Source: Octopus vulgaris
Lineage: Eukaryota
NCBI GenBank assembly: GCA_951406725.2
Contig: OX597820.1
Coordinates: 28,396,001 to 28,460,000, forward strand
DNA length: 64,000 nucleotides
Reading direction: 5' to 3'
In this document: one piece after another, positions 8,051 to 63,330 of the stretch
Layout of the letters: each line of letters opens with the position of its first letter
How positions within the stretch are numbered: the first letter of the stretch is position 1
Made by a program: the position numbers and the translations under genes
Notes under the pieces: model-generated
What the model saw: only the letters and a program-made list of their open reading frames with translations
Database searches by the model: none
What the model was told of the DNA's origin: nothing

Positions 8051-8944
8051 ATGTGCGTGTTTGTCTGTGCATGTGCGTGTTTGTGTGAGTGTGTGTGTTT
8101 GTGTGGGTGTGCACATGCTTCACATTAATTGATGCTAGGGATCTCAAATCACTTTTGGAGTTAATTATCTTCATTTCAAATCAGCGTTTGCTGGATCTTA
8201 GAGAAAAAAACTTATAGAAAAATTGCATTAGTGCTACAGCTCTCACTTCGCCATTGGATATTATACGTTTCTTTTCATCACCAAAACTGACGAATGCTTT
8301 GAGAGATGATGTGGGAGATTTTGATGGGGTTCATACATTTATGAAAGCCTTAGCAGTATATGTGGATTAAAATTACTTTAAATGAAATTAAGCCATTGTC
8401 AAAATTTATTATGAAAATTAAAATCACCTCGATATAGGCCAACAAGGGAGCTGATATGAAGGTACTTCAAAATACAACTTATTAAGAGAAGAGAAAAAGA
8501 ATAGTTCACGTTCGAGTGTCAATTCGTATTTGACAGAAATAATTTTTGACGCAGTGATGTAAGATTAGGATTCCACTGCGATGTGACGTCTGGGTAGCGC
8601 TATGCTCTGACGTCACGAGTACTACCAACGCAATTAGTTTTGAGTGAAAGCCTCTTATTAACTCATCATAATTTCACAAGCTCACGCAAAAGGATTAGAT
8701 TAATTAATTAACTTGAATTATCATCTATATACGCGACGTTTATTGATCCGCTACAGGTGGTTTATGGCAGTCTTCAAAACTTCTATTTGAATTTATGAAA
8801 GTTTCATGTCGTACCCACGTATTACAAAACATTTCATACATGTTCAAATCAGTCCTAGCTCTAGCGATAGATAAACTAAAGGAAACATTGTTTCGGAAAA
8901 GCTCGTATTAAAATGAACATATATATATATATATATATTTAGAT

Positions 8945-9620
8945 TATATATATTATTATCATTATTATATATTTATCACTGTATAAAAATAACTTTCGCA
9001 TTCGCCTTTCCTCTGTAACTTATCAAGTTTCCGAGTTTGTTTACAAAATATTATATGTAATTCTCGACAGTTATATTATCTGTGCATCGATTTAACTGAA
9101 AATGTATGGGTAAGTATTCAGGCTCAATTGCAAGGAACCATATTAGCGTTGATTTGTGGGTTCGATTCCAGCCGGGAATTAGCTCATCCTTTTTCAGTAA
9201 GTTATTTAGTTAAATGTTGCTTTAATCGGAGTATATATATATATATTATTATTATTATGATGATATATTATTGTATAGTTATTGTATAAAAGTGACCTTC
9301 GCAGTCGCTTTTCTTCCCTAACTTATCAAGTTTCCGAGTTTGTTTACAAAATATTATATGTAATTCCCGACAGTTATATTATCTGTGCATCGATTTAACT
9401 GAAAATTTATGGGTAAGTATTCAGGCTCAATTGCAAGGAACCATATTAGCGTTGATTTGTGGGTTCGATTCCAGCCAGGAATTAGCTCATCCTTTTTCAG
9501 TAAGTTATTTAGTTAAATGTTGCTTTAATCGGAGTATATATATATTATTATTATTATTATTATTATGATATATTATTGTATAGTTATTGTATAAAAATGA
9601 CTTTCGTAGTCGCTTTTCCT
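8945..9620 (+). repeat. ~303-bp tandem repeat (2 full units plus a partial) containing a tRNA-like B-box
   Basis: AACTTATCAAGTTTCCGAG at 9017 and 9320. GGTTCGATTCC occurs in each full unit. Confidence 0.9.
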
Positions 9621-11037
9621 CCGTATATAAATATATATATGTATGTATATGAACATATCTATGTATATGAATATATCTATTATGCTTACGTATTCATTTT
9701 GAAAGATTTCTGATGCAAAATCGTGTGTAGAAACATATATTGTTATATGACGGAATGAAGACCCGAGGAATGGAGAGTTGCTGAAGGGGACACAGGCTGT
9801 GAGACGAAGAGTGCAAAACATTACATCCCGAAATATATATATATATGCATATATATACCACTCCCATTTACACATTTGCACTATGACACCCTTAATATAT
9901 GTATATCATTGAAAAGTCTGTCTGTATTGGTGTCTAGGAAGTAGACCTTATTGAGGGGCAGACGAGAACGACTGATGCGCATTTCGCCTTTGCAGTCTGA
10001 CATGAAATCGCATCGTCCTACATTTCCACATATGCAGCAAGTTTCAAAATTTGACATGACTATTAAAGCACTATTCAGTCGTATGGTATAAGAAACAGAA
10101 GATACATTGATAAATATTTTGTTTCTATATTTTACTTCAATCTTACTTTACTTTGTCCGTAAATTATACATTCAGAACCATTATGTCCTAAGTATTATTC
10201 CATGCATTCATTTAACACCATATATATATACATCTACTACATATGTGAGAAATTCTGTCTGTAGGTGTGTTTGTGGAGTTGTTAGCTACCTCCTCCTACA
10301 CCCTCCTCTCTGTGTGTTTTCGTTTGTGTGTGTGTGTATGTGTGTGTGTTTGTGTGTGTGTATCACCGTCTGATAATGGTAAGTACTCAACAATATATAA
10401 GTGTTGTGTATCGACAAAAGAGCTGAAACGTCAGACAAAATAAAGTATTATACATGTACTCCCTCCGGTTTATTCAAATATCCATTGCCCAGCCAAATCT
10501 TTAGCTTTTTTAGCAATGTAAGAAATCAATAATAGAGAAAATAAAATATTTTCATCTAAAGAATACGCTTGCCCTTGCCAGCAATTATTTTTGTTATTGA
10601 ATAAAAATAAAAGGTGATAAATTCATTCTCATACAGTAATATATTTAATAACATTTGAACGTCAGTTTTGAGACGACTGCATTAAATATGAGTGCAAGAC
10701 ACTTTATTTCGACTACTAACTGGATAATAACAACACACCTGCATAATAAGACAGACAAGTCGTTTATAATTCGTCTATAATTTACTCCACTTACAAAGAA
10801 CCAATATATTTCACTGTTCCTCGTTGTTCATCTATATTTATTCCGGCAAGAGACATCGCTATGGTTTTCAAATAAATCTACATATAACTACATTCTGTAT
10901 ATACGAGTGTGTGCTTGTGTATTTATATGTGCGTGTGTGTCTTTGTGTATTTGTGTGTATAATATTTATTACATATATGTATACATGTGAATTTATATAT
11001 ATTTATAGATTTACATACTTCTTATATATCTAATATA

Positions 11038-11079
<42 letters not shown>

Positions 11080-11081
<2 letters not shown>

Positions 11082-11358
11082 TCGAGTCCGTTGGTCATAA
11101 ATAACCATGGGTGCCTCTAAGGGGTTCTCCTCCGAGGTACAACCTAGAGTTGTTTAATGGAAGACCAGTATTCGCCCATACATGCCAGTCAAGGTAAAGT
11201 TAAATGCCGATACAGCTTGGCACCTGTGACGTCGCTGAGTGAACTGGAGTAACATGAAATAAAGTGTCTTGCTCAAGAACTCAACACGCAGCCCGGTCCG
11301 TTAATCGAACTTACAATCTCACGAGCGTAAGCTCGATAACTGAGCTATGCTGCTTCAC
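11080..11358 (-). mobile_element. tRNA-derived SINE (family C core, another tail)
   Basis: Minus strand TAGCTCAGT...GTTCGATT...TCTTGAGCAAGACACTTTATTTCATGTTACTCCAGTTCACTCAGC. Confidence 0.75.
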
Positions 11359-12896
11359 ACACACACACACACACACACACATATTGTTTTATATGCAGAA
11401 ATTTGTTGTGTTTTGAAGCTGTTCGAAACTTAAGATTTTAGGTTGTGTCACACAGTGCGATAAATAGAAGAAATGTTTTATACTATAGCCCTGAGGAAAT
11501 TTGTCAAATGGTAAATTCATTATTGTTCTCAATAGTTGCATTCTAGAATTTCTGGCCTCGACCAATGATGCTTCTTACTACTTTGCTATTTTCTAAAATG
11601 TTTTAAATTATAATTCTCTTTACATCTAGGATATATTATAGCTGCGTGTTACATAGAGAAAAGTGATTAGCCGGGCATGTAATTACTGTGTGATTATGCA
11701 GTGTGATTTCAAAAGTAGGGGAGAAATAACCATGTTTAAAAAAATCTTTTAATTATTTCAGTTGGTACACTCTGGCAATTATCTTTTTAACGTAAGTAAT
11801 GTTAATATTACATTGCTATTAGATATATTCTTTCTCTTCACTTCCATTATGTATGTAACAATATTTGATTATGTTCCTGCAGGTTAAATACAAACAAACA
11901 ATACACCACATTTGTTTTGTTTTCTTCAAAAGGGAAACAATGATCTCCATGACATGGATGTGCTTTTCAATACACATAAACGTAGATAGGATTTACGATG
12001 ACATTGTGTTTAATAACAAACACTAGCCGTATCAAAAATGCATCGAAGTATGTGTGTGTGTGTGTGTGTGTCTCTCTCTCACTCTCTCTCTCTCTCTCTC
12101 TCTCTCTGTATATATTTATTGACTGTATTTAGGCAGTAGCTTTTCGTTGTTTTCTAAATGCAACTTCTTTGACGTAATTTCGTTTCATTTTGTAGCTATA
12201 TATATATATCGGATCCGACAGGGAGAGTCGTGTATCGTCTTTGCTCTGTTTAAAAAAGCAGAAAGTGTGCATAAATCGGTGAAATAATCTACTGAAAGTC
12301 ACAAATTCAACTCATAAAGCCCACTACAACACTTCGGCTACAAATATATTAATCAAAAACGTAATATATTTTGCCTGAAGCCAAACACAGTAATAATTTT
12401 TTCTTTTCACCGAAAACGCACATGGTGGAAAAAAATCCACTGTAGAAGGAAAAAGAAACATCTCCTGGAAAATAACCACGAAAAAAACCCACGAAAAATC
12501 CAGACCACATCGTTGGATTAAGTATCACTTTCATCTTCTATTTCATATTTTGTTTATTATCCTATTTTATATAACTTAAGCCCACATCTCCGTTAAAGTT
12601 TACGATCGCCATTTTTTTGTTTGTTTACATTTCAATAACTGTCTCGAACTTGGCTTCAAAATTAAATAACCCTTTCTTCACACTTTAAAATATATATATA
12701 TTTTAATATATTTTCACTCATTTTCTTTCTTTTTTTTTTCCACCTTCCTTCTCTCCCCGTCGGTGTATATGTGTATGTGTGTGCACGTGTATGTATGTGT
12801 GTGTGCGTGTATGTATATATGTATGCGTATATATGCATGGACGTGAACTTTCACGAACTTTATATAGATAACTAATCTTTCCCCTCTTTCTTACCT

Positions 12897-13552
12897 CTTT
12901 CAGATACTCCATCTTCTAATTAGCCTTAAGATTAAATAACGTTTAATACTGTTTATTGTTAATAATTTTTCAGATACTCTATCTTCTAATTAGCCTTAAG
13001 AATAAACAACGTTTATTACCCACACTTTAACATCTAATTTTTTACCCACACTCTAATATCTTTCTAATTAGCCTTTTTACCCACATTTTAAATATTTGTT
13101 AATATATTTTCAGATACTCTATCCTCTGATTAGCCTTAAGATTAAATAACGTTTTTACCCACACTTTAACTTTTTCACCCACACTTTAATATATTTTTGA
13201 ATACTCTACCTTCTAATTAGCCTCAAGATTAAATAACGATTATTACCCACACTTTAATATAATTGTAATATTGTTAACATATTTTCAGATACTCTATCCT
13301 CTAATTAGCCTTAAGATTAAATAACGTTTTTACCCACACTTTAATATATTTTTGAATACTCTACCTTCTAATTAGCCTCAAGATTAAATAACGATTATTA
13401 CCCACACTTTAATATAATTGTAATATTGTTAACATATTTTCAGATACTCTATCTCCTAATTAGCCTAAGATTAAATAACGTTTTTACCCACAAACTTTAA
13501 TATTGTTAATATTAATAATACTCTATCCCATAATTAGCCTTAAGATTAAATA
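12897..13552 (+). repeat. Tandem monomer array in the presumed 5' UTR of the LINE
   Basis: The core ATACTCTATC(C/T)TCTAATTAGCCTTAAGATTAAATAACG starts at ~12904, 12974, 13114, 13201, 13289, 13356, 13444 and 13518, with a partial copy near 13061. Linkers carry TACCCACACTTTAA. Confidence 0.92.
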
Positions 13553-13611
13553 TCTTCTTGTCTTCTCTCGAACATAGTTAAATAGATAAACAAATAGACA
13601 GATCATCCAGC

Positions 13612-14520
13612 ATGTCCAGAGCATGGAGACCTGACGAGCTGGATTTATTCGTACAAGCATGGGAGTGCGCCGGCGGAGATAGTCCTAGCGAGGTGATTGC
13701 GGCTGCGCTGAAGAGCAGAGGCTACAAGAGGACAGCGGCTCAGATGGAGCGAAAGAGACGGGAATTCGTGCGCTCATATGCGCTTGTACGGTCGCACATT
13801 GGCGCATTTGATGCCATCTTTGAGAACGAGCGGGGCAAAGATGACAAGAATGGAGACGATGAAAGAAGTCACCCCCACCTGGTGGATGCCCGGGAGGAGG
13901 TTTTGAATGAGAAACCTGCCCGGGAAGTGAACCCAGGTGCAAGTTCTCCAACCGGCAGCAAAGGCCATGGAGACGGAGAACCCGGTGAAGAGGTAGAGGG
14001 AGGGGGAAGAACTAAAAGAAGGGCTGGTAGAGCTAAAGGAAAAGCTCAAGCAGGACCAAAGGGTGAAAAAACCAGGAATAGAAGTGGAACCGCAAAAGAT
14101 GGAAACGGACAGCGCACACGGGTGTGTAGGTTCTACCTGAGAGGTTCCTGCTGGCATGGAAAGGAAGGTGCAGGCTGCCGCTTTGCACATCGGGGACCCT
14201 GCCACAGAGACACGAGGCAGATGGACAAACCATCAACACAAGGAAAAGGGATGGACCACGCACCACTTGCCCCAAAGCGGAGGTACGCAGATGTTGTGCG
14301 TGCCACAAACCACCAACATGATGTTGTCGAAAGGGCAGCTGCTGAGCAACAATCTTTTTTGTGCATGGCACAAAAGATTGTACAGCAGCTGACCTGGCTT
14401 CATCAAACCCAAGCCCGCAGGTGGGACTACCCACTATACACCAGACCACCACCACAGCAAACAGACCCAGGATGGACACCACCGGCAACAACGTACACCT
14501 CACCTCGATGCTCCTACTGA
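13612..14520 (+). CDS. LINE ORF1 protein (302 aa): N-terminal Myb/SANT(trihelix)-like domain, charged low-complexity linker, CCCH zinc finger
   Basis: WRPDELDLFVQAW...IAAALKSRGYKRTAAQMERK...Y resembles the Myb_DNA-bind_4 pattern. CRFYLRGSCWHGKEGAGCRFAH is C-x7-C-x8-C-x3-H (14125-14190). A YADVV motif follows. The ORF lies directly upstream of, and overlaps, ORF2. Confidence 0.85.
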   Translation: MSRAWRPDELDLFVQAWECAGGDSPSEVIAAALKSRGYKRTAAQMERKRREFVRSYALVRSHIGAFDAIFENERGKDDKNGDDERSHPHLVDAREEVLNEKPAREVNPGASSPTGSKGHGDGEPGEEVEGGGRTKRRAGRAKGKAQAGPKGEKTRNRSGTAKDGNGQRTRVCRFYLRGSCWHGKEGAGCRFAHRGPCHRDTRQMDKPSTQGKGMDHAPLAPKRRYADVVRATNHQHDVVERAAAEQQSFLCMAQKIVQQLTWLHQTQARRWDYPLYTRPPPQQTDPGWTPPATTYTSPRCSY

Positions 14521-17467
14521 ACATCAGAGGACTGCAAACACTCAGTAACAGGACAAAAATCCCGTTCCTGAGAGATTTTGTTGCATGCAATCAAGCCTTA
14601 TGCATAGCACTAACGGAAACGCACCTGAAACCGGATATAGCAGATGCGGAGTTACACATACCACAGTATGCTGTACTACGGACCGACAGGAAAGAAAGGA
14701 GTCATGGAGGTGTTGCTATGTACATCCGTGAGGACCTCACACCCCAGGTCCTCTTGTCATACTCAAACTCGGTGTGTGACACACTAATTGTACATATTAG
14801 GCAACTTGATGTAGTTGTGTGTGCTACATATCGCCCTCCAGATGCCCCAAGCCACGTGGGCAAGTTTGAAGACTGCCTTATAAAAATAGAATAAGTTCTA
14901 ACCACATTAGAACAACACATAAGTGTACTTCTTATGGGAGACTTCAATCTGCCAAATGCCAGATGGCCCGAGGGCCTTTCTCTCCCAGGAATGACAAGAT
15001 GTGAACGAGGACAGGCGAGGCCCCTCCTGAACCTCATCAACACCCTGTACATGGAGCAGGTAATACTCCAACCAACCAGGGCAGGTAACACACTGGATCT
15101 CTGCTTCACAAATGATATGGATCTCATCCATAATGTGAAAGTGACACCGACACTACTCTCGGATCACAACATGATAGAGCTGACCATGTACGGGCCAAAA
15201 GAGAGCACGGACATGCAGCCTACAAGAAACCCCAGAATCTTTCCAGCTTGAACTACCATAAGGCAAACTGGAAACAAATTGAGAAAGAGATCCTCAAACA
15301 AAACTGGCCTAAATGTCTCTCCTCGCCAGACATCGACGTGAAACTTCAACAATTCATGTCTGTAATGCAAGCCATATGCTACAAATATGTCCCAGAGAGA
15401 AAGGCCACTGTACACAAGAACAAAATCCCCAGAGAGAGGAAAATTCTAATGAGACGGCGTACAAAATTTTCAAATCGCCTAAACAAACAGATTGAAAGCA
15501 GTGAAAAGTCCCGCCTAAAAATAAAACTGTTGGAAATCGAAAAATGTCTGAAACTCTCCCATGAAAAGGAAAGAGCAGACAAAGAAGCCTGGGCTATAGA
15601 CAACATAAAATCTAACCCCAGAGCTTTCTACAGGTATGCCAAAGAAACAGCTACGATGCACTGTAGAATAGGGCCACTCCTCGAAAAGGATGGCACACTT
15701 ACAGGAAAACCAATGAGGGTAAGTGAAATACTGAATGAGCAATTCAAGAGTGTTTTCACTCCACCCCTTGGGCATCTCCAAATCACCAATCCAACTGACT
15801 TTTTTACCACTGCAGATATAAAATCAGAGGCGGCGACGATAGATTACATCGATATAAAGGAAGACGATGTAATCAAGGCTATAGATGAAATGAAAACAGA
15901 CTCAGCTATTGGCCCCGATGGATTCCCGGCAATCCTCCTAAAAGCATGTAAGAGAGTCCTAGCAAGACCACTGCAGTTCCTCTTTCAGAGCTTCCTTGCA
16001 GCTGGCAAACTTCCAAGAAAACTGAAGGAAGGTAAAATATGCCCCATTCATAAAGGAGGTAGCAGAGCGGAAGCCAAGAACTATAGACCTATCTCTCTGA
16101 CCTCACACATCAGCAAGGTCATGGAACGAATAGTCAGAAGGAAGCTGATCACCTTCCTTGAAGAAAATGACTTGCTGCCCGACACCCAACATGGTTTCCG
16201 ACCAGGGAGAAGCTGTTTAACTCAGCTCCTACAACACTATGACTGGGTGCTGAAACGGCTGCTCAACCACTCAAATGTGGAAGTGATATATCTCGACTTT
16301 GCAAAGGCCTTTGATAAAGTCGATCATGGAATGATATGTCACAAACTGCGTGATCTCAACATAGTTGGAAAACTGGGAGAATGGCTTCATGACTTTCTGA
16401 AAGATAGAAGTCAGGTGGTAGTGGCCAATGGGGCCACTTCCATTAACACGCAAATAGTGAGCGGTGTTCCGCAGGGCACTGTTCTGGGACCACTACTGTT
16501 CATAATGGCCCTCTCAGACATGCCCTCAGCCACGCAGAGAGCCACGATCACAAGTTATGCAGATGATACAAAAGTTTCACAAGCAATACAGAACCCTGAG
16601 GACACTAAACACCTGCAATGTGAGCTAGACAAAATATATAAGTGGGCCGAAAAGAATAGCATGCAGTTCAATGCTGAAAAGTTTCAAGCTCTATACTATC
16701 AGCATGCAAAACTAAATGCAATACCCAATGAATACACTGGACCCGGAGGAATAGCAATCCCAGAGGCACAATCAGTGCGTGACCTAGGTATTTACATGAG
16801 TGATGACGCGACCTTTCGTGTACATGTTGCTAAATTGGCAATGAAATGTAGACGACTGGCCGGATGGATCCTCAGAACCTTTAGAACAAGAGAACAAGAA
16901 ACCATGATGGTCCTCTGGAGGACACTTGTCCTAAGCCACTTTGACTACTGCTCTCAGTTATGGTCACCATCCAGTGTCAAGTTGATCACAGAGCTCGAAG
17001 CGATCCAACGTAGCTACACGAAGAAGATAGCCTCTATGCAGAATGTAAGCTACTGGGAAAGACTCAGGAAATTAAAATTATATTCCCTGGAGCGTAGGCG
17101 GGAAAGATATGCCATAATATACATCTGGAAGATCCTGGAGGGAAGTGTCCTGAACTTTGGCATCGAGAGTTACGCAAATGCCAGAACTGGGCGCCACTGC
17201 GTGGTGCCTAGGACTCCAAACTTGCCATCAAGATGTAGGACAAGATTCTGTGATAGCCTGGGCTTCCGAGGCCCACAGCTCTTCAATATCCTCCCGAAGA
17301 ACCTGAGAGACCTGCATGGGGTGGATACAGATGTCTTTAAAATGAAGCTGGATCTCTTCCTGTCAGGTGTCCCAGATGAACCAACTTCACGGCAGGAGGG
17401 GCAGATGATGGCAGCTGCATCGAACTCTCTCATTCACCAAATAGCAGTTGCTAGAAAGCCTTCATGA
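14472..17467 (+). pseudogene. LINE ORF2 (apurinic endonuclease + reverse transcriptase), disrupted by a TAA at 14892-14894 and a 1-nt frameshift near 15240-15248
   Basis: APE motifs LLNIRGL, ALTETHL, GGVAMYI, YRPP, MGDFN, LDLCFTN, SDHNMI. RT motifs NYRPISLTS, QHGFRPGRSC, YLDFAKAFDKVDH, GVPQGTVLGPLLF, YADD. CR1-type C-terminus LYSLERRRERY. Confidence 0.93.
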
Positions 17468-17651
17468 AGTGAAACCAAGTAGCAACACCAAATGGCGTTG
17501 CCCCAGCATGGCCACAGTTCATAAGCTGAAACTGGAAAAATCAAAATCAAAATCAAATCAAATCAAAATCAAATCATGTTTTACGGTTTCCACATTTGAG
17601 GTTCGATCTTTCTTCATGATGCATACAACGCCGCCGATCTTTCCACATGTA

Positions 17652-17800
17652 GGCGCAGGGGTGGCTGTGTGATAAGAAGCTTGCTTCCGAACCACATGTT
17701 TCCGCGTGGCAACTTGGGCAAGTATTTTCTGCTATACCCTAGGTCCGATCAATGTCTTGAGGGTGGATTTCGTAGGACAAAACTGAAACAAGCCCACCAT
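17652..17800 (+). mobile_element. SINE family A, 5' half
   Basis: GGCGCAGGGGTGGCTGTGTGATAAGAAGC...AAACTGAAACAAGCCC. Confidence 0.8.
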
Positions 17801-18297
17801 ATATATATATATAAACATGTGTGTGTGTTTTTTATGTGTGCGCGTATGTGTGTATGTCTGTGTGTGTGTGTGTATGTGTATGAATAAATGAAATAATAAT
17901 GAAATACTTTATTTGCAAGATGTAGCTATGTATAATTATCGCCGAGGAGAGAAAACATAACTTAACATTCGTTTTATTTTTATTTCATTATTATTTATCA
18001 TTATTATTTCATTTTTATTTTGCATTTGTTTATTCGCAACTCTTTATTCGTTATTCGTAACTTTTATTCGTAATTTTTACTCCAACTTTTTTCTCTTTAA
18101 TTTCTTTCCTTAAATGTTTATTCCTTGAATTTTTATTCCTTAAATTTTTACTCCTTAAATTTTTAATTTTCAGTTATCATTTTTATTCATTATTTGTATT
18201 TCTATTTCTATGTATATGTTGAGAAGATTATACTGAAGATATAGACTATCATGGAGGTATATAAGAGGTAGAGGTAGCGAAAAATGGTGAGGAATCC

Positions 18298-18397
18298 AGA
18301 CCTGAAGATTGGGAGTGTGTCGACCCGATTAAGAACTGAAACTAGATATCTCGTATCATATCAATACTGACGTACTTTCATGAAACACGTGTAGTCT
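18298..18397 (+). ncRNA. Type I hammerhead ribozyme motif with an extended stem II
   Basis: AGAC-CTGAAGA-T(TGGGAGTGTGTC...GACGTACTTTCA)T-GAAA-CACGTG-TA-GTCT. Stem I AGAC/GTCT, 12-bp stem II including GU pairs, palindromic stem III, GUA triplet. Confidence 0.7.
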
Positions 18398-18488
18398 TAT
18401 AAACGGAAAATACGGAATTCAGAATAATATAGTTAGTATGAGATTTGATATTTAACATTTTATGGAGTGTCGGGTATAATATCTGTTA

Positions 18489-18543
<55 letters not shown>

Positions 18544-19173
18544 CATATATATATATATACATACATACATACATATATACATACATACATACATACATGT
18601 ACCTCAATATTTGTAAATGCATACGTACATATGTATGTTTACTAAGATAGATAAAGATATACATACATATATGTATATATAGACACACATGTATACATAC
18701 ATTCATACATACATACATTGAAGCCAAAAAGCTTCGTCCCATTAACCAATATGCCATACCATCAAGGTACAAAACAACTCTACATAGCATCCCTAACAGC
18801 GATGTTGAAAGCAACACAGTGGAATATCTATTTGCACATCAACCCGTCTTTTAACATAATTGAATGTAGGTAGTTTATAGTATATGGCGATTTGGACACG
18901 GCTGGAATTCTTATAACGAAATGTGTTCGCGTAGAAATATAACAGATCGGTTTAGACTCATCAACCTTATATCTTTCTCTCTTTCTCTGCCACTTTCTCT
19001 CCGCCTGTCTCCCTCTCCTCCAAATTCTCAGTAATGAAAATATTCTACTACTCTTTAGAGGCCACTCAACATTATTATTAATATTTTTTTCAACCAACAA
19101 TTTACTGTTCTGTTAGATACAGGAAATCTCACATTTGTTCAGAAAAAGATAATAAAACATATGCGCTCGTTAA

Positions 19174-19226
<53 letters not shown>

Positions 19227-19470
19227 TACACGTATGTTTATATATATGTATATATACATGCATATATATATATATATATACTAAAGTATGTATGTATACA
19301 CACGCGTACGTATATACATATATATATACACATGAATGTATGTACATACATATATGTATATTTAAACGTGTGTGTGTATATACTTATAGCTATATATATA
19401 TATATAGCTATATATAGCTATATATATATATAGAAAAGTATGTATATATACACACACATATGTATATACA

Positions 19471-19506
<36 letters not shown>

Positions 19507-20471
19507 CATGAATGTATGTACACACATATATGTATATATAAACGTGTGTCTGTATATATTTATAGCTATATATGTATATATGTGTGTGTGTGTGTGTATA
19601 GTTTTATTTATATACATACATGTGTGTGTATAAGTGAGCGCGTCTGTAAAATATATATATGTGTGTGTGTGTGTGTGTTTGATTATACATGTGTGTGTGT
19701 GTTCATTGTGTGGTTATGTGTAGGTGTGTAAATGTGTCAATACCAATATTCTTGTGAAATTTTCAATAATTTCTTTCATTATTTTACAGCATCAAATCTA
19801 CTTCCCACACACATACACGAAGCCGAAGGCACATTTGAATATAAAAGATTTTTCCCCCTCTTAACACATATGTTTATATATTAACACATTCATGTGTATA
19901 TATATATGTATATACGTACGCGTGTGTATACATACATACTTTAGTATATATATATATACATATATATAAAAACGTTAATGTGTTAGCGATGTGATGACAG
20001 ATCTGAAACGTATCCATAGCAGATTTTATATAAACCTTCTCTCACTGCTATGTATAACGTTTAATTGATACGCCTTGATAAAATTTGTCGTGTCTTCTAT
20101 GAAACGCTTATGTAGCAAGGTTAGACTTCCCTATATGTATGTTTAAGTTCTATTTTTAACTTGTTGGTCTCTTCCCGTCAGAAAGATGTCGGTTTCAAAT
20201 GGGATCAAACAAAAAAAAACCTTTTCCAGAGTTTTTTGCGTAACCTGCGGAAGTTGAGGTAAAAAGTAGCAAAATGCATGTATATTTCCCCTGTGCGTGT
20301 GTTGTGTGTGTGAAGTAATTATTGATGGGATGATCTGCTTCAGGTTTTAGGCCTTGTGTTGCGCGTGAATAGGAGATTCAGTGTGTTATCTGCGTGCGTT
20401 GCGTCCTATACGTGTGGACATGAGTATAGATATCTGCATTCAGTAGCGTATTATCTAGAGTTGCTTTGTGA

Positions 20472-20625
<154 letters not shown>

Positions 20626-20719
20626 GAAATAGGTTTCAAAGAAAAAGACTACACGTGGTATAAATAAGGGGAAAGTAGGAAGAATGTAAAGACTTTTTAA
20701 AATCTGGTGTAGTATTTCG

Positions 20720-21860
20720 GTTAACTTACTTAATGTTTGTATGTCTATTTGCTTTGCTCGTTTCATGCCATCATTTATTAATGATGTTGGGTAATGTCTC
20801 CTGATTAGTGTTGATTTACGTTCAAGGTGTCTTCGTTCACGATTATTGGTATCTGAAACTTTTCGCTAGGTTATAAGGTATATTAATTTTTATGTGTTTG
20901 GGTTAACATGATTTGAATAATAGGTATTGTTTTGAATCTGTGGGTTTATAGATGTCCGTTTCGGTGTGGTTATTGGTTATTTTAATTAGGATGTCAAGAA
21001 TGGAAGTTTTTTATTGTTGTATTCCATTGTGAATTGTATATTGCTATTGATATTGCCGATCATTATTTTGAAATCGACGAGTTTGTCCATGCTGTTGTTC
21101 CAAAGTAGGAAGCAATCATTTAAGTATCTCTTCCAGTTCTCCTTAAAATAGCAATGCAAACGAGGTACCGCATTTTGTAATGATAATTGGTATATTTTAA
21201 GTTCTATATAACCCATTACAACGTTCGAAATCACTGGGGCAGCTCGAGTTCCCATTGCTATTCCACATTTGTCGATAGTAAACTATATCGAACATGGCAT
21301 AGTTGTTCTGTAGGATAAATTTCACTGCTGCAATTATGACGTTATGGTTGATGTCTCGTGGGATCTCTTCTTGGTATTTTTCTAGCTAGAAAGTAATTGC
21401 TTCTATACAAAAATCGTGTGGGATATTAGCGTACAAATTTACCACATCGAATGATACTAACAGGGTTCCTTCATTTATTGTTTTCGGGACGTGGTTAAGA
21501 ATGTCTAAATCATCCGTGATGAAGCTTATCACATATTTTTTAAATGGTTTAAGATGTCGAGGCAATAGCTCCAACGGTGGGTTTCCAAGCAGGCTCAGCA
21601 CTGCTGGGTCTTAGATTGAGGTCAGTAGTGGGAGGAACATTAATGTATAGGCTTGGAAAATGTTTGCAAGCTTTACTAATATGTGGATTTCTGTGTATTT
21701 TAGGTAATCCGTAGAATAGACATTGTCTGCATTTAAAAATGGATAAATAGTCAATTTATGTTTTAGTGAGGCCCTTCCCATGTATTGGAAGTAAGAAGGA
21801 TATGTTTTTAAAGTTCTTTAAGTGTTATAGTGCTCTATCTTCTCATAGTAAATATAGTTT
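20720..21860 (-). mobile_element. Penelope-like element RT fragment (degraded)
   Basis: LVSFDVVNLYANIP, MGTRAAP, WKRYLNDCF, IQFTME...[23 protein letters not shown], with stops and frameshifts. Confidence 0.85.
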
Positions 21861-22420
21861 TCCACACACAACCATAGAAATAATGAGACCTTCAACCTCA
21901 TCATCCGAAACCTACCCATTCTCACTGGAGATAAAGCAATGAACAACATTTTAGGCTTACACAAAATTATCAAGAACAAAACGCGACCGATATCATCGAA
22001 AAAATATTAACCAGCGAAAGACTATATCCATTAACAACGGCACCAAAAGTGTAAAATACGGGCGGCTTAACTGTGGCACATGCCCCTACCTTTTGAAAGG
22101 TACAGAGTTTCACCTTCAAGTTTCTCCTGCACCTTTGAAAACTGCTATTACCTCCTTAGGGTGCAGAAATTACTATATAGACCAAACAGGTATGCCATTC
22201 CGACGAAGAACAACACTTCACAAAGAACAATTCCGCTACGCACAATATATACAGGTCAGTGGGTGCATAGGAAGATGTGCTAGGAACCTTAAACCGAAAT
22301 TCCTAATTTTCTCTTTTTATCAATGTTCACAGAACACCTCTGTACAGTAAATAGGCAAATTTCATTATTAAATATTATCCACTACTCAACATGAACACCC
22401 AGCTTAATATAGGACACTAC
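21861..22420 (+). mobile_element. Penelope-like element linker and GIY-YIG endonuclease fragment, inverted relative to the RT
   Basis: FNLIIRNLPIL linker, CGTCPYL zinc-knuckle and NYYIDQTG (YIGQTG-like). Confidence 0.7.
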
Positions 22421-23897
22421 TTACCAGACTAATACCAATAATCTCCATAGATACCATACACCATTCATATTCCAGTATTTATAACTAACTTAATTGTAAC
22501 ACTTTAAGAACTCCTTACATACATTGTATGTAATCTTTTCACTCGGGTACTATTAGACCGAACAACGTTTGGAAATCGGTGTACATTTAAAGTCAGAGAT
22601 CAGCTCTGACGATACCGATATTACATTGAATCTCTATACTGATTCATAATAATGATTTTTATACTTCATAATTCCCCCTCAAATAATCTAATTGTATGTA
22701 TATATCTTCGCTTTTCTTAAACAGCCTTTATTTTTTATATCTAATGTGTATTTTTGTTTTCTTTTTTCCCCCCCCCCATATATATATATATATATACATA
22801 CATACATACATATATTCATATATATATACATTAATAATTAGGAATAGAGTATCTGACATCTTTATATATATTACAATTATATTACAGTGTGGGTTGTTCT
22901 CAAACACATGTCTACTTAGACCTAAGGTAGGTAATTCAACATATCACAAGGTGCACACACACACACACACACAAAGGTACACACACACACACACACTATT
23001 AAGGCTTAGGATAATATCAAATATTCTTAAATAAATAAAACCTAATTAATATTGTTCATTGAGTCTGTGAAAATAGATGTTTCAGTGTGAGTTGACAGGT
23101 TGTGTGTGGATTCTTACTATGAGAAGATAGAGTATCATAAAATTAAACAATAAACATATCCCTTTACTTAATCAAGGCTCACTAAAACATTTTTATCCAT
23201 TTTAAAGAGACAAGGTGTCATAGTTACCTAAAAACAGAAAGTTCACATATGTGGCTTGCAAAATATTACATACTCGCACACACACATACATGCAGTGCAC
23301 ACACAACATACACAGACCGGAGAGAAAACCATGGAAAAAAAGAAGAGAAAATGAGTGAAAATACAATAAGAATATATAGTATCATTCGATGTGGAAATTT
23401 GTCTCCACGACACATATAAACATTTTCAACAAAATACCATATCAATACTTTAACATATACATAGATAATTTATTCTTATATATATTTAGGTTTACTATAA
23501 ACAAAATATGAATATAATAAAGGAAACATAGAACTTAAAATATACCAATATCATTACAAACAAATGCATATTTACATTGCTATTTAGGAGAACAGAAGAA
23601 TAAATATATTCCTACTACAACAGCATATAACTCACACAAAATACATGATCACAATATCACATATAATATACATATATACACATATATATGTATATAAACT
23701 TCCATTCTTGACACATATATTATATAAACAAACAACCACATATCATATAGATAAACACAATATATTATTCAAATTTAACAAACACATAAATAATAATATA
23801 TTATAGCTGAATGCAGAGACTAAATCAACACTAATCAGGAGACGCCACCAACATCATTAATGTTAAATAATGACAACTGTGTTATACAAACATTATA

Positions 23898-23943
<46 letters not shown>

Positions 23944-24123
23944 GTGTACCTATACATACCTACACATACACACATATACATACACTACAAACCCATTCCC
24001 TTATTTTAATTTTATTATTATTTTCATTTATTACTTTTGTTATCTTTGACCGCGGTCAGAAGCATCTTGGCTATCGTATATATCATATCGAAACTAACTA
24101 TGACTTAACTATCCTCTCACACC

Positions 24124-24175
24124 GTCTCCGATGAAGGGATATAATTAATGAATATCATAGAAACCGCTGTATGAC
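24124..24175 (+). ncRNA. Decayed type I hammerhead motif
   Basis: GTCT-CCGATGA-...-GAAA-CCGCTG-TA-TGAC. Single substitutions separate it from CTGATGA and the palindromic CAGCTG. Confidence 0.45.
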
Positions 24176-24301
24176 CTTCTATCTATAAATGCTCTAATAT
24201 CTACACAGCCTTGGTTTTTTTATATTATTAAGCAAAAAATTCTTACATATATGTATATATATATATATGTGTGTGTGTGTAAGAATATATATATATATAT
24301 A

Positions 24302-24580
24302 ATAACAGGTCCTGCCCTACTTAACATTGTCCCGAAAGAGATCAAAGAGGAAAAGGATCCCATCAACTTTAAACGGAGTCTGGATAGATTCCTTCAAAGA
24401 ATACCAGATAAGCCACCCATAATTGGATACAACTCGCCCAACAAAAACTCACTACTTGAATGGACCATAAACAAACTTGACTTAAACAGGATTCAAATAA
24501 TCCTATCAGGTGGTGCTATTAAGTTAGACATGGCCTGGACCAATCTTTAATCGAAACATATCTAAGTTTATCTAAGTTTA
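24302..24580 (+). mobile_element. CR1-group LINE 3' fragment
   Basis: GPALLNIVPKEIK...FKRSLDRFLQRIPDKP...NSLL parallels the ORF2 C-terminus at 17270-17440. Tail is (ATCTAAGTTT)2. Confidence 0.75.
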
Positions 24581-25325
24581 TATATGTAAGAATATATATA
24601 CGTGAGAGATTATCAAGAATCGTGAATCTAGGATGTTTTAGCTGCACCTGTAGTTATAAAGCAATAGACACCCTAAAAATATTCTACACACACATACACA
24701 CACATTCATATTATGGGATTAATCACTAAATTAAAATCTTGACTCTCTTCTAATATGTGTATCCATTCCATCTTTCTTCTCCTATCCCGTATGTATCTCT
24801 TCACGTCCATGTAGCATTTACTATGAGATTTAGGTTGGTTAAAACATTTTTGTGACACATTTTAACCTCTAAAGTCAAATTCACTACAGTTAAAGCGGAG
24901 AAAAGAATTCTCACTTATATTTATAGTTGTAAAAACACCATATTTGCCCATTGTCGGAATACCAGAAGCGGCTCTTCTAACTCTCTAGCCGTTTCTAGTC
25001 CCGACTAATGGAAACATTGGGCAGATGTGTTATTTCACGCATATTAACATAAGAGACAATTTTCCTCCATGGTTCCTATTGTAAGTTTGCCATTGGAACT
25101 TGAAATATATATCAAACTTATTGTAAGTAAGCTGAAGATCACCTATCCCTAAACACTTTAGCGCTGATACAGTTGAATTCTTTAATATTTTGATTAATGC
25201 CTGTCCTCCTAACACATTACCATTCAGGGTTATATTGAACAAATCAAATAAATCGAACGAATCGAAGCCAGTACACACAAACACACACACACACACATAC
25301 ACACACATACATCCACACACACACA

Positions 25326-34774: not shown

Positions 34775-35040
34775 TCATGTTTGTTTGGTTAAGAAGCATG
34801 CTTTGCAAACACGTGGCTTCGGTATCAGTTCCACTGTACAGGTGACTGTATGCCTGTGTTTGTCTCTCTAACACCACTCCACGACCGCTGTTCATTTGTT
34901 TACCTCCTGATAACTTAGACGTTCAGTAACAGAGACAAGGAAGATAATACCAGACTTGAAAATAAATGCTCCAGCATGGCCACAAAGCAATGTCCCAGCA
35001 TGGCCACAGTACAATGACTGAAACAAGTGCAAGATAAAAT
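34775..35040 (+). mobile_element. Degraded SINE family A with a duplicated 3' motif
   Basis: CCAGCATGGCCACA occurs twice (34971 and 34995), followed by CTGAAAC. Confidence 0.7.
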
Positions 35041-38682: not shown

Positions 38683-39692
38683 AATTGTTGAAATTATAAT
38701 TAATCTCCCTCTAATTAATGCTTCGGATTTTACCGAAATAAGCATAGCGTTTGATGATTTTAACCCACGCTGGTGGAAAGGGGAGAACAGAAATTCTTCA
38801 CTTGCTTATTTGGGTTAGTTGGCACTGTTAGTTACGAGCGGATCTTCGAAAGGGTATGTTCTTACTTTCAGTGTTTCCAAATCCAAACCAAGGAGTTGTT
38901 GAGCTGAAGATAGAAATGTTGTTTTGACTAATCTTGAAACGTACGTTCTCAAATAACCTTAGCATTTGATTTTTTAATGTCCTTACCCCCAAACTTTTGT
39001 GAGTTGAATTAAGCAAACGCTATATATGAGAGAGATTTTCTTTAAGTATTAGAAATAGCTTTAAAAAAGTTTTTTAGCTGCTATTTCTAATGAGTTCAGT
39101 ATGCGGCAAAGTAATTTATTTTACTAAGCCCTTTTATATAATGTAATAATTTGAATTCGCCTTAAATGGTCCCTTTGCATACTGAACACTTGGTGAAATT
39201 GATTAATAATTAATTAATTTTACCCTCAATTGTTGAAATTATAATTAATCTCCCTCTAATTAATGCTTCGGATTTTACCGAAATAAGCATAGCGTTTGAT
39301 GATTTTAACCCACGCTGGTGGAAAGGGGAGAACAGAAATTCTTCACTTGCTTATTTGGGTTAGTTGGCACTGTTAGTTACGAGCGGATCTTCGAAAGGGT
39401 ATGTTCTTACTTTCAGTGTTTCCAAATCCAAACCAAGGAGTTTTTGAGCTGAAGATAGAAATGTTGTTTTGACTAATCTTGAAACGTACGTTCTCAAATA
39501 ACCTTAGCATTTGATTTTTTAATGTCCTTACCCCCAAACTTTTGTGAGTTGAATTAAGCAAACGCTATATATGAGAGAGATTTTCTTTAAGTATTAGAAA
39601 TAGCTTTAAAAAAGTTTTTTAGCTGCTATTTCTAATGAGTTCAGTATGCGGCAAAGTAATTTATTTTACTAAGCCCTTTTATATAATGTAAT
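38683..39692. repeat. 545-bp near-identical tandem duplication (~1.85 units), probably a Penelope-derived terminal repeat
   Basis: Units start at 38683 and 39228. The ORF-track peptides at 38828 and 39373 differ by one residue. Confidence 0.85.
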
Positions 39693-46162: not shown

Positions 46163-46688
46163 ATATTTATATGTACAAAGACAGAATAGTCACAGCACAT
46201 ACATATGTGTATATATGTTGCTATGCCTGACTGGCAGTCCCTGAGATTGTTAACCTGTAAAAACCGGCAAAATTAATGTCAGCTCGCATCTTTGTATCTC
46301 AAAGGGTACTTAGCATTTCGATAAACAGAAATCGATGGAATAAGTAAGCGACTTAAATAGGTACAATGGTTTATTATGAGTGGCTAAAATTGTAGTTTGT
46401 GCCCCATCATGGCCAAGTTCCAGAAGCTTACACAAGCAAATTGTGTATGTCATCGACCCCAAGACATCCATAAAAGATCACGTTGTTTTCTTTCTGTGAA
46501 CACTTCTTACAGATGAGCAGCTTAAGAAAATCCTTAATCGATATGTAATAGCTCTATTGATCTATCGTCTTACATCACATATTGATAAATATTTGCACCG
46601 AATCTAGTTTACGTGTATCTAAATTCTGTTCTGTTCTTCATAGCCATTGCTCTTTGCTGCAATATATTGTCACTTTCTTGGTTAAACT

Positions 46689-54977: not shown

Positions 54978-55027
54978 CTTCCTGATGATTTCTCTTGAAT
55001 GAAACAGTTCTAGTCCTGTAGAAGCTC
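54975..55027 (+). ncRNA. Type I hammerhead ribozyme, copy 1
   Basis: GAGCTTC-CTGATGA-T(TTC tctt GAA)T-GAAA-CAG ttctagtc CTG-TA-GAAGCTC. 7-bp stem I; predicted cut after A55020. Confidence 0.8.
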
Positions 55028-55109
55028 CTTCTATATAATAAATTAATTTTACTCTGCTATGTATTGAGTACCTTATTTACTGTGGTTAACCCCGAATCAA
55101 CCCGGGACC

Positions 55110-55154
<45 letters not shown>

Positions 55155-55168
55155 TTATTTTATAGAAG

Positions 55169-55221
55169 GAGCTTCTACAGGACTAGAACTGTTTCATTCA
55201 GAAGAAATCATCAGGAAGCTT
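55169..55221 (-). ncRNA. Type I hammerhead ribozyme, copy 2 (inverted)
   Basis: Reverse complement of copy 1 with loop II TTCT. Confidence 0.8.
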
Positions 55222-55268
55222 CCTGATGATTTCTTTTGAATGAAACAGTTCTAGTCCTGTAGAAACTC
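55217..55268 (+). ncRNA. Type I hammerhead ribozyme, copy 3
   Basis: Same core with loop II TTTT and one stem I substitution (GAAACTC). Confidence 0.75.
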
Positions 55269-57699: not shown

Positions 57700-59430
57700 A
57701 ACGTATTTATTAAATTTATTAACCGTGTTCACTTATTAAAAAGATTTTCAGAAGTAAAGTGTGAGGTTCTGTGTAACCTCCGTGGTATCCAAAATTAGTT
57801 TACAAAAATGTATTCAAGTCAAGTGATGGAGTCTTTTGTAATTATAAGAAAAGTTTTAAGGTTTTGTGTATCCTCTGTGATGAGTCAAAAAAATAGTTTA
57901 CATTAAAACATTTGATCAGGTAAACATTTTTCAGGTGTAAAACCTGTGAGGGTGGCTGATGGTCACAGTTCACAACTGTAGTTGACGAATGATAAGAATG
58001 TTTTGAGTGCGTTTATATGTCTCGCATTTCGCTGGAGTTTGGCAGTTATAAACAGAGTGGTAAATTTTCTGTATAAAATCTTCCTTCTATCTAAAACCTC
58101 TCGAAAGAGCTGTTCTTCACTGCTGCTCCAGAGCGTCGGCTGCGGGGTCATTCCGAAAAGCTCTATCTGCGACGATTTCATCTCAATCGAAGGAGAGGGG
58201 CTTTCTCCGTCCGGGTTGCGGATCCGTGGAATAAGCTGCCAGACGAGATGGTGAAGATGCCGACGACCGCTCGGTTCAAAGTCTCCCTTGACCTCAAGTG
58301 GCCTGAACTCTTTACATGAACACCACCCTGAACATAACTCCATGTCCCGCTACATGGCCTTACTTTTTGCTTTTTGAGCCAAAAAATTAACTAACTAACT
58401 AACTAACTAAAAATGATAAATGCTAATAATATATCCCTTAAATAACAATGTCATCTAGTATTCGTTTTCAGGTGTAAAAACAGTGTGGGTAGCTGATGGT
58501 CACAGGTCACAACGTAGTTGACGATTGATTACAAAGTATGCGTGTAAGTATGCATGTTTTTCCCGGGAAATGTGGATAGAAGGTTGTGTGTGTGAACGTA
58601 TCTGCGTTTATCGAGGTGTTCCATGTGTGTATGTGTATGTGTGTGCCTGTGTATCTATGCATGCCTGCGTGTATGTGTTGCAGTTGTCAGGCCAGATGCG
58701 AGATATAAACTCACTCAAAACCTTATTATCAATCGTCAATTACATTGTGAACTGTGACCATCAGCCATCCCCCCCACACACACACACACTATTTTCACAC
58801 CTGAAAACAAATACTGGATGGCAATGTCATTTAGGGGTTATATCATCAACATTTATCATTTTTGGATAAAAAAATAATTTTATACAGAAGAATTGCAACT
58901 CTTTTTATAACTGCCAGACTCCAGCCTTATGCAAGACATTAGAAGCCACATCCAAGAACTTTAAATAGTCTGTTACAAATTTTATTTTCTTGCCAAAAAC
59001 TCTATTACTTGATCGGGATGTATTCATGTAAACTAATTTTCATCTTATCATTATAAAAGAATTTTATTATCTGATCTGAATGTTTTTATGTAAACTATTT
59101 CTTGACTCACCGCAGAGGATACACATATTTTATCTTCTTGTCGAAGACTATTATTTGTTCGAGATATATTTATGTAAACTAATTTTTTCTTCTTATTATA
59201 AAAACATTTTATTATCGAATCTGAATGGTTTTTATGCAAACTAACTTCTGACTCATCACATAGGATACAGAAAGCCTCAAACCTTTTCTTATCATTGTCA
59301 AAGTCTCTATCACATGATTTGAATACATTTTTTTAACTATTTTTCATACCACAGAGGATACACATAACCTCACATTTTACTTTAGAAACGAAAATCCTTT
59401 TAAATAAAGAAAAACGGTTACGTTAACAAA
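57700..59430. repeat. Two diverged copies of an AT-rich repeat in inverted orientation
   Basis: 57721-57925 is approximately the reverse complement of 59200-59420. 57927-58095 plus 58410-58530 is approximately the reverse complement of 58700-58925. Confidence 0.65.
58097..58410 (+). mobile_element. CR1 LINE 3' fragment with a (TAAC)n tail
   Basis: Reads RLRGHSEKLYLRRFHLNRRR..FSVRVADPWNKLPDEMV...FKVSLD, a canonical CR1 C-terminus. CTAAAA on both sides is a likely TSD. Confidence 0.85.
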
Positions 59431-63011: not shown

Positions 63012-63330
63012 ATTTACAAGATACTGTTGAATTAGCATAGCGTTCAAAAGCCCACAACTCATCAATGCCCTGCCACAATAATTAAAGAACTAGACATCCA
63101 CCTTTCCACAATACTGGATGAAACAAGTGTCCGACATGAGGTACAGGCAAGGGCAGCGGAATCAAACTCCCTTATGCACCAAATTGGTCAACAGCTAGGA
63201 CAAAAGCACATACAGGAGTGGAGATGTGAAACACCCCAGACTAAAAACAATAGAACGACCACAGAGGTACTCTAGCATGACGGCAAAGGCATGGCTGAAA
63301 CGAGTAAATGTGTAAAGGAGTAAAATAGTA
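63012..63330 (+). mobile_element. Degraded 3' fragment related to the 13-17 kb LINE
   Basis: AFKSPQLINALP...DETSVRHEVQARAAESNSLMHQI parallels GFRGPQLFNILP...DEPTSRQEGQMMAAASNSLIHQI. 3' motif CTAGCATG...GCTGAAAC. Confidence 0.75.

Follow-up and report, generated by a model that had tools for sequence, protein, structure and literature searches.

A predicted Myb/SANT-like domain joined to a CCCH zinc finger in the ORF1 of an octopod LINE family

Non-LTR elements of the R2 group carry an N-terminal zinc finger and a Myb domain, for DNA recognition, in one polypeptide with the RT and a restriction-like nuclease, and the 5' monomers of mouse L1 are promoters used by host factors. The octopus LINE described here shares with the former a Myb fold in a non-LTR element and with the latter tandem monomers before ORF1, but in contrast to the R2 group its Myb is located in ORF1, apart from the RT, and the element is of the APE type, and the acceptor-like junctions are a feature of the octopus array. 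A further transposon-encoded accessory Myb is the Myb/SANT (MADF/trihelix-like) protein of PIF/Harbinger, with which the octopus domain has Myb_DNA-bind_4 as best Pfam family in common and which is a possible donor of the Myb. Unlike PIF/Harbinger, the octopus element presents a retroelement context with neither a DDE gene nor TIRs seen, and its domain stays under the Pfam cut-off, misses two Trp and the Cys and is fused to a CCCH finger.

Shuffling of ORF1 domains is established for CR1/L2 elements, whose ORF1 types I-V (Khazina & Weichenrieder; Metcalfe & Casane 2014, PMC4120745), as presented in the available text of the latter survey, resemble the octopus case as two-ORF APE-RT LINEs with a modular ORF1, a shuffled N-terminal domain and relatives with a PHD-like finger. 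None of the types I-IV (RRM+CCHC, Tnp22, PHD and esterase) as given in this text fits the octopus ORF1, and RRM, CCHC, Tnp22, PHD and esterase are all absent from the nine Pfam families that ORF1 matches at E ≤ 10. In the available main text of the survey (PMC4120745) the words 'myb', 'sant' and 'ccch' occur 0 times, with none in Table 1, and the list holds no cephalopod element. The nearest precedent is one HTH_1 ORF1 in an algal L1, from a paper with no Myb or CCCH in the available part of its main text (PMC5203782). Octopus CR1 families have been counted, with 13 recently active in O. vulgaris, in papers that in their available parts do not describe the ORF1 domains of these families (PMC9115989, PMC13282606, PMC8967140, PMC10294476) and whose repeat libraries probably contain the present LINE family. 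The two ORF1 layouts treated below, Myb+CCCH and PHD+triple CCCH, are absent from the surveys searched, and a Myb+CCCH or PHD+CCCH LINE ORF1 is not described in the literature covered (Repbase, Dfam and subscription papers lie outside this scope). The ORF1 architecture is real and, as it appears, undescribed, in a system known for ORF1 shuffling.

The element and its ORF1 relatives

The window, the whole stretch of 64,000 nucleotides from Octopus vulgaris that was analysed, contains on its plus strand a two-ORF LINE in which ORF1 is followed by an overlapping ORF2 (Table 1). The initial annotation had described an ORF1 open for 302 aa, and its extent is borne out. Pfam recognizes APE (E 7e-10) and RT (E 3e-31) in ORF2. 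In comparison with P0003, an intact ORF2 relative with 88% identity, this ORF2 is interrupted by a stop in frame at 14892-14894 and shifted in frame near 15224-15250; the named ORF2 relative nearest to the window copy is from Argonauta hians (59%). The element belongs to an octopod LINE family, as a copy that was broken recently, and shows the layout of the CR1 group, with APE and RT in ORF2, ORF1 upstream and a short 3' UTR with a repeat tail. No target-site duplication longer than 8 nt surrounds the whole element, and no further long coding frame was found to adjoin it, the neighbouring ORF being the APE-RT frame.

Table 1. Features of the LINE and of related sequences
Feature	Position	Strand	Remarks
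A-rich stretch, possible first exon / 5' start	12210..12520	+	AT skew +0.08 to +0.47, like the ORFs
T-rich intron-like leader	12540..12903	+	homology to 23516-23190 (-) above shuffled controls
Tandem array, 8 monomers	12904..13552	+	units 67-88 nt, one compound 140-nt unit
Unique leader before ORF1, 59 nt	13553..13611	+	second acceptor-like site at 13577
ORF1	13612..14520	+	ATG 13612 to stop 14520, 302 aa, intact
Myb/SANT-like domain (predicted)	13618..13833	+	ORF1 residues 3-74; helices 7-19, 25-35, 42-74
Single CCCH finger, C-x7-C-x8-C-x3-H	14125..14190	+	ORF1 residues 172-193
Conserved C-terminal amphipathic helix	14314..14424	+	ORF1 residues 235-271
ORF2 (APE endonuclease + RT)	14346..17467	+	overlaps ORF1 end; broken
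Short 3' UTR	17468..17576	+	two small hairpins, (AAAATC)n tail ending at 17576
Second, decayed leader + monomer copy	22835..23516	-	without ORF1 behind, without TTACCC
Outgroup ORF1 loci	L003:3-2753, L005:3-530, L006:958-2556, L007:247-1686		also P0152, P0156

A full search with ORF1 retrieved 35 proteins at E ≤ 0.001; the word-indexed protein search gave nothing among 2434 candidates and its profile version just 5 proteins. The 11 ORF1 relatives that are named all come from Octopus vulgaris or O. sinensis. Besides the query, the Myb-like domain and the finger region are present in six proteins (P0123, P0125, P0127, P0128, P0132 and P0158), although the profiles used for scoring derive in large part from the proteins themselves; the finger ligands C-C-C-H are intact in five of the six, with one Cys lost in P0128. 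Three unrelated CCCH proteins (P0133, P0153, P0155) were kept out of the alignments. Among the seven near-full-length proteins, identity amounts to 36% (24-51%) in the Myb, 56% in the finger and 39% in the C-terminal helix, far above the 15-18% of the linkers, which indicates that the three modules are under constraint, and the combination of Myb and CCCH can be regarded as a conserved family trait. The Myb ORF1 is physically joined to an ORF2 in the window only, while for the relatives the link is deduced from the ORF1 ends: the last codons of P0123 and P0158 are compatible with an overlapping 'VLLLN' ORF2 start, as in the window copy, which suggests that these two are LINE ORF1s as well.

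Family DNA was absent from viral contigs, and the prokaryote genomes gave one 29-residue match at chance level. A run search with the element stretch gave 24 rows, of which 20 contain the whole or part of it, five at no less than half of the words, and no RNA run is among the 24. The end of a lipin gene model of O. sinensis (P0135, XP_036355764.1) matches ORF1 residues 71-133 at 59%, a piece that is either an exonisation or a prediction error.

The Myb/SANT-like domain and the CCCH finger

Sequence and predicted fold agree on a Myb/SANT-like domain at the N-terminus of ORF1, with each test modest by itself. Pfam Myb_DNA-bind_4 (PF13837) matches residues 3-61 of the first 73 aa with E 2.4e-4 and 21.9 bits, short of the gathering cut-off of 27 bits, and the whole protein with E 6e-3. 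At E ≤ 0.05 the family is matched by 4 of 34 ORF1 relatives, each under the cut-off, and at E ≤ 1 by 5 of 17 N-domain family members, with no other Myb family turning up. The model predicted from 24 sequences is a three-helix bundle (pLDDT 84-97 over ORF1 residues 1-70), and its comparison with 48,161 chains, in which no best row reaches Z 8, places the DNAJC2 SANT domain at the top (Z 7.7, rmsd 4.5 over 68 residues), followed by TEAD4 (Z 7.3), the RAD Myb (Z 7.2, rmsd 2.6 over 58), GT-1 (Z 6.9, rmsd 2.7, 59 residues), LUX (Z 6.7, rmsd 1.9 over 55) and ARR1 (Z 6.7), with Zeste, Tbf1 and further SANT/Myb domains in lower rows. The N-domain profile has 0 matches at E ≤ 10 among PDB sequences, and in the ESM Atlas the best value is 0.86, a lead only, with Myb families at 0.78-0.83. 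The call is kept modest because of the sub-cut-off Pfam score, the few family members matched, the top Z value and a Foldseek search with the ORF1 model that returned nothing at E ≤ 0.001; the domain may alternatively be a generic helix-turn-helix bundle rather than a Myb.

The initial annotation had recognized the Myb_DNA-bind_4/trihelix pattern in this region. The fold and the Pfam match below the cut-off speak for it, while the gathering score and the Trp/Cys motif do not. In the family, W5 is retained in 13 of 16 and W17 in 15 of 18 sequences, position 26 is mostly N, position 45 is I/V/M/L and position 49 is K/R in 20 of 21; we take positions 26, 45 and 49 to be those of two of the three trihelix signature Trp and of the Cys. 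The three spaced Trp with the Q-C-x-x-K-W motif are thus not found in the family. The substitutions, which had been ascribed to this copy, are real but common to the family, and decay of the window copy as their cause is ruled out. As two Trp and the Cys are replaced throughout, the domain passes as Myb/SANT-like but cannot be counted among the trihelix domains. Plant GT-1 shares with it the fold and a long third helix, but with 17% identity, and tied with several other Myb/SANT/TEA folds, its target motif is not transferable.

Turn and helix 3 together have a net charge of +3 or higher in 15 of 16 sequences, and among 21 sequences helix 3 conserves R40 (19), Q44 (19), K48 (20), Y56 (20), R47 (17) and E46 (16). 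As helix 3 is basic and conserved, DNA binding by the predicted Myb-like domain is plausible.

The C-x7-C-x8-C-x3-H finger turned out to be exact in position and spacing as initially annotated. It scores 24.4 bits against Pfam zf-CCCH (PF00642) as a 30-aa fragment and 16.7 bits in the whole protein, with the cut-off at 20.5. By analogy with its family it would bind RNA. Its best sequence match among solved structures, a weak one, is Muscleblind (MBNL, E 0.015), whose CCCH fingers are however tandem pairs, while the ORF1 finger is single with an 8-residue second spacer. The linker between the modules is disordered and basic.

Probable exchange of the N-terminal module and possible roles of ORF1p

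Judged by its motifs, the RT looks CR1-like. In RT trees of 85 rows and of a chosen 36-row subset, calculated with a midpoint root and without named references, the element groups with four close ORF2s at 100/100, and in the 36-row tree this group is nested in a 100/100 clade with the marine loci L003, L005, L006 and L007. The lineage is placed on a 0.98 stem, apart from other CR1-like loci, and may belong to Proto2 or another clade rather than to CR1; no Proto2 paper was usable as a source of a clade reference, the available parts of PMC4758252, PMC7846101 and PMC3849965 not being decisive. Metagenome contigs contained no DNA of the family: of 464 related loci in their scan 80 were kept (best identity 49%), and the Myb profile had 0 matches in these.

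The ORF1s of the marine LINEs L003, L006 and L007 and of P0152 and P0156 have a helical N-domain and a PHD-like finger together with a triplet of CCCH fingers and an 'FL'-led coiled coil, while L005 displays the CCCH triplet on a sequence that ends before the PHD region, so that three of the four L loci have the PHD-like region. In L003 the helical/PHD module is doubled. The ORF1 C-terminus of L002, which is in a group nearer to the element, is also of the PHD+CCCH type of P0152/P0156. Besides the RT clade (100/100 for the L loci), the marine LINEs share with the octopus element a homologous first finger, the 'FL'-led C-terminal helix and the ORF1/ORF2 overlap, but they have three fingers instead of one and an N-terminal module that is not Myb-like by profile. 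When the profiles of the two ORF1 types are compared, only the first finger aligns (96%), and 0 of 9 outgroup ORF1s score with the family Myb profile. The predicted model of the outgroup N-domain has five helices; in the fold search with the outgroup ORF1 model the coiled coil filled the rows, with no Myb entry among the 50, and the nearest ESM Atlas clusters of P0156 are unnamed, some of them zf-CCCH.

Most likely, the CCCH finger is inherited and the Myb replaced the PHD module, as the nested RT clade, the alignment of the finger alone and the absence of Myb scores in the outgroup make this replacement the parsimonious one. We infer an ancestor with a helical domain, a PHD-like finger, three CCCH fingers and a coiled coil; in the octopod branch the helical/PHD module would have been swapped for a captured Myb, with the first finger and the C-terminal helix kept and two fingers lost, a direction that depends on the midpoint root, on few outgroup ORF1s and on a Myb present on DNA in the window copy only. 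Against the same background of RT clade, finger and C-terminal helix, the lineage offers a natural exchange, with PHD in marine relatives and Myb in octopods, and the ligands and insertion preferences of both forms would show directly whether such domains target chromatin; we know of no test of a chromatin action of PHD fingers in LINE ORF1s.

With respect to function, we consider it an even bet that ORF1p packages RNA and that its Myb stands in for the PHD module of the ancestor by engaging a DNA or chromatin ligand that is shared. The finger and the basic linker would bind the element's RNA, the C-terminal helix would oligomerise ORF1p, and the Myb would take over the job of the replaced module by recognizing a ligand that all subfamilies have in common (a DNA motif, the DNA backbone or chromatin), a contact through which the particle would reach the nucleus or target chromatin. 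A common ligand fits better than private arrays because helix 3 is nearly invariant in subfamilies that are only 24-51% identical.

Somewhat unlikely is a Myb fold that no longer reads DNA sequence but contacts RNA, nucleic acid in a non-specific way or proteins (host factors, ORF2p or further copies of itself) and also provides a nuclear localisation signal. LINE ORF1ps are RNA chaperones, the top fold match is the SANT domain of DNAJC2, helix 3 contains an RKRR-type run, and the family-wide loss of two of three signature Trp and of the Cys, presuming our mapping, would agree with such a role. On the other hand, E46, R47, K48 and R54, presumably the positions that read bases in Myb proteins, are strongly conserved, and the surface is basic, not acidic.

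The 5' array, the leader and neighbouring repeats

Upstream of ORF1, eight monomers start between 12904 and 13518, and the array ends at about 13552. Within it a 155-nt dimer repeats at 96%. In alignment with a second, decayed copy in the window, which is roughly 67-86% identical to leader and monomers, the repeated 5' unit begins near 12540, about 350 nt upstream of the initially annotated array start. Monomer-like sequence (62-71%) occurs also at 12650-12694 (+), upstream of the array proper, and the word CGCCATTTT near 12608 resembles what we take to be a YY1 site. The A-rich stretch at the 5' side has no second copy within the window. The RNA fold of the monomer is not better than that of shuffles (z -1.06), and an in-frame peptide upstream of ORF1 resembles that of P0140.

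The array opens on the base after a CAG at 12903. A branch-like CTAAT lies before the polypyrimidine tract of this CAG, which ranks second among the 1568 YAG sites of the plus strand; the junction TTTTCAG|ATACTC is repeated in four monomers. From this acceptor-like site to ORF1, 708 nt are free of ATG (P 0.006 versus shuffles, 0.16 with redundancy removed), and at about 12520 the strand composition turns from A-rich to T-rich, a change that is reversed at ORF1. Acceptor-like array start, lack of ATG and composition flips suggest a layout of exon, retained intron and array exon, i.e. a spliced 5' leader, although all donor candidates are weak and the acceptor-like site is decayed in the second copy. 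Most likely, the array is the 5' leader/promoter region of the element, run by host factors and possibly spliced, and not the dedicated target of the Myb.

It is unlikely that the array is foreign to the LINE, as a separate leader and array repeat adjoining a LINE truncated just above ORF1. In LINE fragments it is usually the 5' end that is missing and not the 3' end, and such an origin would account for the other leader and monomer copy of the window having no ORF1 behind it, for the missing target-site duplication around the whole and for P0154, called on a 1180-nt contig, in which a decayed Myb follows 176 open codons of CA/CT-repeat-like sequence in place of this array. However, neither a tail nor a junction separates the last monomer from the 59-nt leader and the ATG, into which it passes directly, the acceptor-like sites and the ATG-free stretch face the ORF1 strand, and the Penelope-like fragment and microsatellites that closely border the second copy could have cut it. 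An array copy without ORF1 and a Myb copy without array, both old, are thus on record, and P0154 may be 5'-truncated. The array as a Penelope pseudo-LTR gained no support, as Rfam found no hammerhead on 11000-25000, where it gave sub-threshold microsatellite matches only.

Returning to the array as the element's own leader, the initial annotation had proposed that ORF1p is an autoregulatory or targeting module with a Myb that reads GGGTAA(A/T) in the array. Targeting fits the evidence better, while autoregulation, by which the Myb would bind this or another repeated motif of its own array and feed back on transcription, is quite improbable. The motif is indeed repeated on the minus strand, with eight copies in the array and 12 in the whole window (13.5 expected from shuffles), and the array lies directly upstream and is recently homogenised; helix 3 is basic and conserved, and GT-1 is among the top fold matches. 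Harbinger Myb proteins moreover bind terminal or subterminal sequences of their own element, according to the available text of PMC13668399. However, the monomer itself repeats, and as a consequence 26 hexamers recur at least seven times in the array, GGGTAA(A/T) being one among them; the dimer also carries AGAT, TAAC and TAATTA, presumably other Myb-class words, so that the match is not discriminating. TTACCC occurs 0 times in the second array copy (n = 1, a decayed copy and thus a weak point), the Myb of P0154 has no such array before it, and GT-1 is tied with DNAJC2 SANT, TEAD4, RAD, LUX and ARR1 (Z 6.7-7.7). LINE 5' regions usually turn over fast, but helix 3 hardly varies between subfamilies, and ORF1 differs at the residues that trihelix factors presumably use around the third Trp. 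Reading of GGGTAA(A/T) by the Myb has thus gained no support, and for self-regulation adjacency to the array is the sole positive support.

Very doubtful is a LINE with a 5' leader intron under the control of one protein, with the array as a spliced ATG-free exon, the Myb on array DNA and the Muscleblind-like CCCH finger on nascent RNA switching between spliced (translated) and unspliced (packaged and copied) RNA, the copying of the latter accounting for the intron-like segment in both genomic copies. If true, self-regulation or such a splicing switch would be a feedback circuit new for LINEs in the literature searched.

At the opposite end of the element, 17490-17531 (+) matches the tails of SINE-like repeats at 28562-28521 (-), 34991-35024 (+) and 46400-46428 (+), with 86% over 43 nt and 82% over 34 nt, and LINE 3' end and SINE-like tail form the same pair of small hairpins (z -0.9 and -2.6). 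The shared 3' tail makes the LINE family a candidate autonomous partner for octopus SINEs. A second LINE lineage, from within this broad clade, is represented by a 3' fragment at 24161-24547 (+) that is nearest to L003-type ORF2 ends (about 41%), and a related LINE whose tail is similar has left an old 3' fragment at 63040-63330 (+).

The second array copy is flanked by a decayed element at 20700-22700, with RT remains on the minus strand and a frame at 21955-22350 on the plus strand, and by a second, inverted RT fragment at 23528-23875; the labels Penelope-like for the element and GIY-YIG-like for the frame are assigned by motifs and are presumptive. Further tandem repeats are present at 8924-9622 (303-nt period) and 58975-59273 (146-nt period). 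Identical stretches 545 nt apart, at 38770 and 39315 (-) and at 38904 and 39449 (+), suggest a recent local duplication, and at 54982-55223 hammerhead-like CTGATGA...GAAAC units occur in both orientations.
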